DNA from: a virus
Taxonomy: Duplodnaviria > Heunggongvirae > Uroviricota > Caudoviricetes
DNA length: 21,738 nucleotides
Virus record (IMG/VR): IMGVR_UViG_2537561977_000011
Reading direction: 5' to 3' (one strand)
Shown here: positions 15,435-17,389 of the stretch, piece after piece
Layout: every line of letters starts with the position of its first letter
Numbering within the stretch: the first letter of the stretch is position 1
Made by a program: the position numbers and the translations under genes
The notes under the pieces: model-generated
The model's database searches: none
Seen by the model: the letters and a program-made list of their open reading frames with translations, nothing else
What the model was told of the DNA's origin: nothing

Positions 15435-15587
15435 TTAGAAGTTCAGATTTTTCAGTGCATTCAGTGCAGAGCCCACATCCTCAGCGTCGCGCAGGGACAG
15501 TGCGCCATAGCCCCCGGCCATGAATGCTTTGGCCTGGGTACGGGAGAGTCCGACATCACGCAGGACTCTTTCGATTTTTTTCTGTTC
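15435..15587 (-). pseudogene. detached 3' remnant of the prohead protease gene (last 50 codons), separated from the gene body by the IS10-like insertion
   Basis: With the IS and one duplication copy removed, the protease frame continues ...ARGEIP-EQKKIERVLRDVGLSRTQAKAFMAGGYGALSLRDAEDVGSALNALKNLNF* to TAA 15437..15435, followed by AGGAG and the capsid ATG. Confidence 0.7.
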
Positions 15588-15598
15588 GGGGATTTCCC

Positions 15599-16892
15599 CT
15601 GAGGGATCCCCAGAAAATTTAGTAAACCATTATCATATTGGTATACCGTTGCTGTAGAACTTTCAGCCCTGCGTCAAGTGACAGTGTGTTTAGTATGAGT
15701 GGAGAATGTCGAATCACATTCTCCGCCAGTTTTAATAACGAGATGACTCGCCTGTGCTTCACTGTATTTGCCTGATATTTATGATGTATCCCTTTGTTTT
15801 CCAGGCTGAAACCGCTTAACCACATAATGATACTGGCTAATGTTGCGATCAGACTCAATACCGTGACCCGCCCGGATGAATGACTGGCACCAAACCGTAG
15901 TCCAAATCCCCAGCGAGGATTTTTTTCATCCCTGAAATTTTGCTCAATTTGCATTCTACGGCTGTATAATTTCATTACCTGTTTTGGCGAGAACTCAGTA
16001 CTGTTTGTGAAAATAAACCATGGTGATTTCCCGGCAGTACGAGCTTTAGCCGTCACCGATGGTCTGGTTGCTCTTTCCTTCGAGCGTTTAAATCTACGAC
16101 CTTTAGGCTTACTTTTATAAAGATAAAAATGCCCTTCATGTTGTGCATTTTTATCTCGACCCAGCAGGCCTTCACCTAAATAAATTGCTGTCGTTGATGC
16201 TTTTGTGCCTGAGTCCGACACCTTTTCCCAGCCATTACCAACATTGTAATAATGATTGCCCAGTACCCGGCAAATATAGGTCCAGCCACGGGAGCGGAGC
16301 TGTTGGAACCATCGCCCCTGAAAACCGGCATCTGTAATAACAATGACATCAGTCCCGGGGGAAAAGCACTCAGCAAGCGATTCCAGAAAACGCTCATGTA
16401 CATCTGCATTCGCTGTCTGTGATGATGGAACGACACAACTCATCAACGGTAAAGAACGCCCGTCACATGCCAGGCTTGCCCGCAAAAGCTGAAAACGAGA
16501 GGCATGATAAGCACTCCAGTCAATGAGTATCACAACACGAGACATTCCCCGCGTAATCTTTTGGGTAATTCGCTGAAAAATGGTGGAAACCTCATTTTGC
16601 AAATGTCGATTCCCCAACAGTCGATCCACCCGCTTTATTTTGTTTTTAACTGATGCCGTACCGGTTAAATGACGCCCGATACTGGTAAGTGTGAGGGAAG
16701 CGCCATTTATTACAGCATTAGTTGCGTCAATCAGTGATTTTTGACGGTAAAGATGCAAAGGGGCCAGTATGTTGTTAAGGAAATTTTGGCATAATGAACG
16801 TGCAGGCATAGTGGTGATCTCCTTGAAATTGTTAGCACAATCAATTAGATCACATCTCACTATGCCTGTCTTGTTTTCTGGGGATTCCTCAG
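15599..16892 (-). mobile_element. IS4-family (IS10-like) insertion sequence, about 1.29 kb, with terminal inverted repeats CTGAGG(G/A)ATCCCCAGAAAA and a 9-bp target-site duplication (GGGATTTCC / GGATTTCCC; boundary ambiguous by 1 bp)
   Basis: Ends resemble IS10 outside/inside ends (CTGA.GAATCCCC); 18/19 matching inverted repeats at 15599.. and 16892..; direct repeats at 15589..15598 and 16893..16902; one intact transposase gene inside. Confidence 0.85.
15619..16809 (-). CDS. IS4-family DDE transposase (IS10-like)
   Basis: ATG at 16809 with AAGGAG 9 nt upstream (ORF-track start at 16860 is GTG); shares KR(I/V)DRLLGNRHL, DWS, DAGF, YS(K/R)RMQIE(E/Q)(T/N)FRD and FQANTV with the IS10 transposase as recalled. 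Confidence 0.9.
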   Translation of the reverse strand: MPARSLCQNFLNNILAPLHLYRQKSLIDATNAVINGASLTLTSIGRHLTGTASVKNKIKRVDRLLGNRHLQNEVSTIFQRITQKITRGMSRVVILIDWSAYHASRFQLLRASLACDGRSLPLMSCVVPSSQTANADVHERFLESLAECFSPGTDVIVITDAGFQGRWFQQLRSRGWTYICRVLGNHYYNVGNGWEKVSDSGTKASTTAIYLGEGLLGRDKNAQHEGHFYLYKSKPKGRRFKRSKERATRPSVTAKARTAGKSPWFIFTNSTEFSPKQVMKLYSRRMQIEQNFRDEKNPRWGFGLRFGASHSSGRVTVLSLIATLASIIMWLSGFSLENKGIHHKYQANTVKHRRVISLLKLAENVIRHSPLILNTLSLDAGLKVLQQRYTNMIMVY

Positions 16893-17389
16893 GGGATTTC
16901 CCCGCGGGCCAGTGCGTTCTTGACGTCGCTGATCCGCGCCTCGTCGTTAGACGGGAACGTCACCAGACTGACTTCCCAGAGGTCGATTTCTTTCAGCAGA
17001 AAGGCTTCTTTGCTCCGGTCGTATTCCCAGTCTTTCAGGACGTACCCAATAGAAAGGCCGGTTAACGAACCGGCCTTCATGTGTGCATGTGCACGTTTTG
17101 CGAGGGGATCATCATCAATAAGCAACCGTCCCCTGACGTAAAGCCCGACATCGTCTTCCTTCATTTCGGTGTAAACACCGATGGGTTCATCCATGCGGTG
17201 CTGCCAGAGCAGCGCAGGTAACGCTTTTCTGTCACTCCACGCCCGCAGGGAAGCAGCAAATGCCCCGGACATCACCACATCATCGTGGCTGTCCTTTACA
17301 CCAAAGACGGAGCCATACCCTTCAAACTCACCGGAGTCACTGACAGATTTCAGACTCAGCGGTACATCAAGACGTTGTTTCGTCTGCAT
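16889..17389 (-). CDS. HK97-family prohead protease, C-terminally truncated by the IS10-like insertion
   Basis: Lies between portal and capsid genes; ends ...ARGEIP then a stop inside the IS end. Probable start ATG 17389 (AAGGA upstream); the ORF-track start at 17425 has no ribosome-binding site. Confidence 0.8.
   Translation of the reverse strand: MQTKQRLDVPLSLKSVSDSGEFEGYGSVFGVKDSHDDVVMSGAFAASLRAWSDRKALPALLWQHRMDEPIGVYTEMKEDDVGLYVRGRLLIDDDPLAKRAHAHMKAGSLTGLSIGYVLKDWEYDRSKEAFLLKEIDLWEVSLVTFPSNDEARISDVKNALARGEIP

Follow-up and report, generated by a model that had tools for sequence, protein, structure and literature searches.

The inserted element and its boundaries

The window analyzed here, the whole 21,738-nucleotide tailed-phage record IMGVR_UViG_2537561977_000011 of IMG/VR, contains a gene for an HK97-family prohead protease whose 3' end is interrupted by a complete insertion sequence (IS) of 1294 bp, located at positions 15599-16892 with its transposase sense on the minus strand. 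This element was 100% identical over all 1294 bp to at least 13 other copies in Escherichia coli genomes, including those of CFSAN029787, FDAARGOS_943 and FDAARGOS_944 and of RMDEC and VL strains, which RefSeq labels "IS4-like element ISEc60 family transposase"; the DNA of its 396-amino-acid (aa) transposase gene was identical to that for WP_001111632.1 in the annotated copies. On this identity, the element is ISEc60, an IS that is already named and catalogued and that belongs to the IS10 group within the IS4 family. No difference from annotated ISEc60 copies was detectable, the insertion site alone being particular to this genome and a few relatives. Elsewhere the element is abundant, with 36-38 ISEc60 places per chromosome in FDAARGOS_943 and FDAARGOS_944.

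The element boundaries were set by comparison with 10 full copies from other loci, which place the ends at CTGAGG...CCTCAG. On the plus strand, CTGAGGGATCCCC opens the element at 15599 and GGGGATTCCTCAG closes it at 16892. The terminal inverted repeats lie at 15599-15611 (CTGAGGGATCCCC) and 16880-16892 (reverse complement of CTGAGGAATCCCC), and the two termini agree with each other in 18 of 23 bases. The transposase-proximal repeat (16870-16892, reading CTGAGGAATCCCCAGAAAACAAG on the minus strand) matched the IS10 outside end at 12 of 13 positions and has no GATC, and the transposase-distal repeat (15599-15621, plus strand, CTGAGGGATCCCCAGAAAATTTA) matched the IS10 inside end equally well (12/13) and has a GATC at 15605-15608. 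The remaining features of the IS4-family layout were also found, namely a single transposase open reading frame (ORF) that takes up 1191 of the 1294 bp, short terminal repeats beginning 5'-CT and a flanking target duplication. A first-pass annotation of this DNA had described an IS10-like element of the IS4 family, a description borne out both by these termini and by a transposase 36% identical to that of IS10. The interval it gave, 15435-16903, covers the element but extends beyond it on both sides, to include a detached remnant of the protease gene and the second copy of the target duplication. Longer IS ends were also considered, as other copies resemble the window for 11-12 nucleotides (nt) past the ends, and were rejected; the flanks are mutually similar target sites.

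The interrupted protease gene

Upstream of the element in the direction of transcription lies the truncated protease ORF (16889-17425, minus strand), which encodes 178 aa if read from its first ATG and 166 aa if the RefSeq-type start (17389) is used. The truncated product retains the whole catalytic domain, matching Peptidase_S78 (E 6e-32) over positions 6-158 of 165 and TIGR01543 over positions 1-141 of 142. It ends in ...ARGEIP, and its stop codon, TGA, is formed by bases 2-4 of the IS end. On the other side of the element, the detached 3' end of the gene (residues 167-216 and the stop) follows the duplicated target at 15435-15598, also on the minus strand. Deletion of 1304 bp brings this segment back into frame and restores one ORF of 228 codons ending in ...EQKKIERVLRD...LKNLNF and the stop, the remnant that the first-pass annotation had pointed out. 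When aligned with the intact 216-aa protease of strain UTI89 (WP_001193631.1), the two halves were 100% identical over residues 1-166 and 163-216, respectively. The gene is split after codon 166, with exactly the last 50 codons (residues 167-216) detached, as had been claimed earlier; an alignment failure of the downstream 50-codon frame, which would have spoken against that claim, was not seen.

Assignment to the protease family is borne out by the full-length model match and by the position of the gene, which has the portal gene upstream and the major capsid gene downstream. In sequence the protein is a full member of the HK97 gp4-type proteases (Peptidase_S78/TIGR01543) of SfII, SfIV, SfI and phiP27-like phages, and the gene order (terminase, portal, protease, capsid) is that of these phages, with about 88% DNA identity to SfIV, SfII and phiP27 across the portal-protease region. 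Unlike in those phages, however, the gene is split past the catalytic domain and the 50-residue C-terminal tail is left untranslated, the insertion point being the boundary of domain and tail.

The target-site duplication

The element is flanked by a direct repeat of GGGATTTCCC, with one copy at 15589-15598 and the other at 16893-16902. The repeated string reads 12 nt (GGGGATTTCCCC), because the first C and the last G of the IS extend it. Of the 10 full copies compared, all from other loci, seven are flanked by 10-bp direct repeats, which in one case differ from each other at one position, and an eighth by an 11-bp repeat. The remaining two have unrelated flanks, as is expected after recombination between copies. 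Both of these are FDAARGOS_944 loci, in narZ (L005) and in the traL/traP region (L009), where the non-duplicated flanks lie beside truncated genes; they probably arose when IS copies recombined or when DNA between them was deleted. A duplication of 9 or 8 bp, with an element of 1295 or 1296 bp, was rejected, given that the duplication of one copy (GGGCTAACCA) ends in A and its tenth base is therefore target DNA and not IS. The 9-bp duplication of the first-pass annotation was thus short by one base, and ISEc60, with 10 bp as its typical value, departs from the 9-bp duplication of the IS10 subgroup.

Empty sites and the age of the insertion

An uninterrupted form of the protease-capsid junction was sought in related prophages and was found at three levels of relatedness. 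The Logan contig SRR094061_492 matched the window, once exactly 1304 bp had been taken out of it, without a single difference over 3804 nt (100% identity). The FDAARGOS_944 prophage (NZ_CP065613.1, 634416-654834), 99.9% identical to the window, has an uninterrupted junction, and at a level of about 94% identity the junction was intact in over 1000 genomes of E. coli. Given the perfect duplication, the zero differences from other ISEc60 copies and the survival of empty sites in identical DNA, the insertion is evidently recent, in agreement with the earlier view of the event.

The window, which is the whole contig ADUP01000036.1 of assembly GCA_000188815.2, comes from an old draft and shows several homopolymer-type indels relative to a close relative, and a repeat collapsed into a draft contig might in principle have mimicked an insertion. 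This explanation is effectively refuted and we assign it a negligible likelihood. The junction of the window was recovered, base for base, in the independent Logan assemblies SRR32438455, SRR3578594 and SRR040460, and therefore is no assembly artefact; the flanking repeat proved reproducible in the same assemblies, and a perfect 10-bp duplication is what true transposition gives.

Target preference and repeated use of the site

To define the target, we aligned the left flanks of 31 independent ISEc60 insertions, drawn from E. coli records and from 25 metagenome loci. The consensus was G-GGG-N4-CCC(-C). Position -10 was G in all 31 flanks, positions -11, -9 and -8 were G in 25-26 of them, the central four bases were A/T-rich, and positions -3 to -1 were C in 26-29. 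The base that follows the duplication was C in seven of the nine full copies with readable right flanks (the window copy included). These alignments point to a palindrome, G|GGG-N4-CCC|C, as the ISEc60 target. When the IS-less window was scanned with a weight matrix to which the site in the window did not contribute, the protease site ranked first of 40,842 positions, and GGGGNNNNCCCC occurred only once in the 20,434 bp, at 15588, which is the insertion point. The choice of site is explained by its being the only GGGG-N4-CCCC palindrome in the region and a match to a strongly preferred target.

The same site has been entered more than once. In three metagenome assemblies (ERZ27246816, ERZ28584745 and ERZ28596229; loci L049, L050 and L051), ISEc60 was found at the same base of the protease gene in the opposite orientation, with the junction at locus position 2001 and with no difference from the window in the 2001 bp of flank upstream of it (100% identity). 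These insertions are independent of that in the window, because a given flank keeps the same IS end beside it when IS copies recombine. As both IS ends start CTGAGG, the truncated product has the same 166 aa in either orientation. The protease site is empty in the sister prophage (FDAARGOS_944), where two other genes, those of the sheath and the portal protein, carry ISEc60 instead; the sites are GTTATCACCC and GAGTAAATCC, and the duplications are 10 bp long.

A separate set of IS-free prophages (L045-L048, e.g., JHRD01000098.1 of GCA_001265315.1), at 88-95% identity, was found to carry a GAA-to-TAA change at protease codon 167, directly after ...GEIP. These have the same 166-aa truncated protease, followed by an intact 401-aa capsid gene, and the coincidence of position is striking. 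Such nonsense changes, being independent of the IS, could be taken together with the two or more independent insertions, all of which give a 166-aa product, as a sign that inactivation of the protease is selected for (prophage lock-in or domestication), rather than that a target is preferred. We consider this very improbable. The protease site is the best match in the window to a consensus obtained from unrelated loci, and in the sister prophage, too, ISEc60 entered consensus-like sites, within the genes for the sheath and the portal. Moreover, a capsid frameshift (see below) predates the insertion, so that little would be left for selection to act against. Finally, the nonsense variants were retrieved only through an exact-protein look-up, and their discovery is probably an ascertainment effect of that exact-sequence search.

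Several further observations bear on target use. On plasmid pCFSAN029787_01 (NZ_CP011417.1, 63900-67100; locus L057), two head-to-tail ISEc60 copies lie 10 bp apart at positions 415-3012 of the locus, with GGTAAATCCC present three times identically (flank, spacer and flank). This tandem pair fits a second insertion, into a target that the G and C at the IS termini had re-created. More distant relatives at 82-85% identity, with pseudogenised transposases, were found on a plasmid of E. coli G6/7 (L058) and on the TC24 chromosome (L059), in the GGG-N4-CCC sites GGGTAGGCCC and GGGATATCCC, and the target preference appears to be common to the wider clade. In the literature that we searched, no description of ISEc60 target specificity was found, although ISfinder, which lay outside that search, may already record it; the open literature searched contained a table mention of ISEc60 only, the other string match being "ISEc603".

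With respect to distribution, ISEc60 was not found in 50,697 phage records. A scan of species-representative genomes for the IS end returned one match, in Candidatus Erwinia dacicola, which is uninformative on the source of the window. In this olive-fly symbiont (NZ_MAYS01000218.1, locus L010) a 24-nt ISEc60 end is present exactly. The metagenome OFEI01 (loci L012-L035) has the ISEc60 end at the termini of many contigs, and the flank of one of these loci (L027) is common to L010. The matches in Ca. Erwinia dacicola and OFEI01 suggest an expansion of ISEc60 outside Escherichia.

Other damage in the prophage

The major capsid gene, immediately downstream of the protease remnant (14195-15420, minus strand), is itself broken. 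A 1-nt deletion at 14717 splits it into ORFs of 267 and 141 aa, and Pfam Phage_capsid positions 1-123 and 147-280 fall on the two separate ORFs. Relative to FDAARGOS_944, the deletion shortens a plus-strand run of six T (six A on the coding strand) to five. The same frameshift is present in the Logan assemblies SRR094061, in which the protease is free of the IS, and SRR040460. A sequencing error was rejected as its cause, as it recurs in these two other read sets, and its presence in the IS-free SRR094061 contig shows that the change is genuine and unconnected with the IS.

Also broken is the gene for the large terminase (18802-20559, minus strand), which is interrupted by an in-frame stop at 20137-20139. 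This stop lies inside a 16-codon stretch that is out of frame, from a 1-nt deletion at 20178 to a CG/GC difference at 20129-20130 relative to FDAARGOS_944, whose own large terminase gene is annotated as frameshifted at the same C run. The antiterminator Q gene of the FDAARGOS_944 prophage is frameshifted as well. That strain carries a 261-kb plasmid with ipaH7.8 and ipaH4.5, which indicates a host of the Shigella/enteroinvasive E. coli (EIEC) type.

Near the other end of the window, a complete IS1 of 768 bp (888-1655; Pfam DDE_Tnp_IS1; ends GGTAATGCTGCCAACTTACTGAT and GGTAATGACTCCAACTTACTGAT) is flanked by a 9-bp target duplication, CCTGTATCG, at 879-887 and 1656-1664. It splits a minus-strand ORF (332-901 and 1634-2329) that has no Pfam match and that lies beside Mu gp48-like baseplate/tail-fibre genes. 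Additional 1-nt indels relative to FDAARGOS_944 were seen at 7967, 10370, 10672 and 21708, two of them in the tail-tube gene region; lying in homopolymer runs, some of these may be draft-assembly errors.

The transposase and its control

The transposase gene (15619-16809, minus strand; 396 aa and a stop) occupies the sole long minus-strand ORF of the element (15619-16860), with its ATG at 16809. Its product matched Pfam DDE_Tnp_1 (E 1.8e-20, 74 bits) and NCBIfam transpos_IS4_2 (360 bits, cut-off 152). Against the IS10R transposase, a reference verified on plasmid R100, it was colinear and 36% identical over 375 aa (E 1e-74). The catalytic residues D97, D160 and E289 align with D97, D161 and E292 of IS10, and Y282/R285/E289/K296 with Y285/R288/E292/K299, so that the Y-(2)-R-(3)-E-(6)-K signature of IS4-family, DDE_Tnp_1-type transposases is present. 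The earlier description of an apparently intact transposase, co-oriented with the phage genes, agrees with this ORF and its DDE residues.

The 83-nt leader of the gene contains an 11-nt perfect inverted repeat, within a hairpin at 16803-16868 (minus strand) whose 5' arm (16858-16868) pairs with the stretch that contains the start codon (ATG, 16807-16809). The RNA fold had an energy of -37.9 kcal/mol (z = -6.2 relative to shuffled sequences), and the inner stem overlaps part of the Shine-Dalgarno sequence. IS10 is protected from external transcription, and its leader structure can mask the start codon. By analogy, the ISEc60 hairpin is predicted to block translation of the transposase on transcripts that enter from outside. 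Read-through from the phage late operon would hold both arms of the hairpin, and the transposase would then probably be poorly translated, its ribosome-binding site and ATG being buried. A GATC at 16848-16851 falls within a possible weak extended -10 region (TGATCTAAT), which we liken to the arrangement in IS10. Covariation gave no support for the hairpin, since the relatives at 82-85% identity are pseudogenes and their changes amount to a mismatch and a wobble pair. No Rfam family matched at E <= 1 in 15300-17100, including RNA-OUT, although that model is built from IS10-like sequences and a diverged antisense RNA could escape it. Near the leader, no outward promoter scored above the cut-off in a consensus scan.

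The first-pass annotation had raised the possibility that polar effects or outward IS promoters alter expression of the capsid gene; the IS being co-oriented with the late operon, either an outward promoter or read-through from the transposase gene might drive or alter that expression. At the level of transcription some features are compatible with this: a promoter-like match on the minus strand (TCTACA-18-GATAAT at 15658-15629) faces the capsid gene, and the minus strand of the IS shows no convincing intrinsic terminator. The match, however, is to only 9 of 12 bases, and with five promoter-like sites found on both strands of a 1.8-kb region against 2.1 +/- 1.5 in shuffles, no one match counts for much. 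At the level of consequence the proposal largely loses its point, as the capsid gene is frameshifted also without the IS and the terminase is broken, so that altered transcription would yield no functional product. We consider a regulatory role very improbable. With a frameshift in the capsid gene, a stop in the terminase gene and an IS1 in the tail-fibre region, the prophage was a defective one already, and the insertion is better seen as part of neutral decay than as regulation.

Discussion

We hold with high confidence that the locus records a recent insertion of ISEc60, directed by its preferred target, into the protease gene of an already defective prophage. On this interpretation, an intact ISEc60 moved, through the cut-and-paste reaction of its DDE transposase, into the gene for an HK97-family prohead protease. 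The prophage concerned is SfII/SfIV/phiP27-like, has a contractile tail and resides in an IS-rich E. coli (assembly GCA_000188815.2), for which the most similar complete genome has a plasmid of the ipaH invasion type. Cuts staggered by 10 bp account for the duplication of GGGATTTCCC, and the IS end supplies an immediate TGA stop at the boundary of the catalytic domain and the tail.

Some points weigh against this interpretation or parts of it. The name ISEc60 comes from the RefSeq annotation of identical copies only, and not from the ISfinder reference. In HK97, the tail of gp4 reportedly directs the protease into the prohead; a tail-less protease would accordingly be expected not to enter proheads or mature capsids, with the role assigned to the tail of the present protease being carried over from that phage. 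Several 1-nt differences between the window and FDAARGOS_944 occur within homopolymers and could stem from sequencing errors, the capsid frameshift excepted. With respect to control of the transposase, a consensus scan gave no sigma-70 promoter for the gene above the cut-off. The hairpin is, in addition, partly degraded without compensation in the only relatives examined, which are divergent and pseudogenised.

Comparison with IS10/IS10R of Tn10 (annotated as ISVsa5 family on plasmid R100) places ISEc60 close to a well-known element. The two share a single colinear DDE transposase with conserved D-D-E and Y-2-R-3-E-6-K residues, 13-bp termini that agree at 12 positions, a GATC in the transposase-distal end only, as at the IS10 inside end, a symmetric target consensus and a leader structure able to mask the start codon. 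Unlike IS10, however, ISEc60 is 1294 rather than 1329 bp long, makes a duplication of 10 rather than 9 bp, has a leader of 83 rather than 107 nt and reads GGGG-N4-CCCC rather than the IS10 target consensus, NGCTNAGCN. We tentatively propose, at somewhat less than an even chance, that ISEc60 cuts a 12-bp palindrome, G|GGG-N4-CCC|C, with a 10-bp stagger, differing from IS10 in target sequence and stagger, and that its selection is stringent enough for it to hit one prophage site independently both ways and to re-enter the site that it regenerates, giving rise to head-to-tail tandems separated by one duplication.

In other respects, this is a known element in an ordinary event that is routine for IS-rich genomes of Shigella/EIEC-type E. 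coli. The combination of several IS in one prophage (here ISEc60 and IS1) with frameshifts is like the IS-driven prophage decay of Shigella and enteroinvasive E. coli, as is the sister prophage of FDAARGOS_944, with two ISEc60 copies in a strain whose plasmid has ipaH genes; next to such decay, nothing in the present case is unusual. The main value of the finding lies in annotation, in that the prophage can be recognized as a decaying remnant in a Shigella/EIEC-like lineage in which IS are expanding; within that lineage, a very recent date can be given to the ISEc60 hop, as DNA of 100% identity still holds the empty site. Mildly new are the target consensus (GGGG-N4-CCCC, with its 10-bp duplication), the recurrent hot spot and the tandem copies that share three 10-mers. 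The consensus predicts where ISEc60 would land, and the pair of ISEc60 and IS10 offers a simple natural contrast for the reading of targets by IS4-family transposases.

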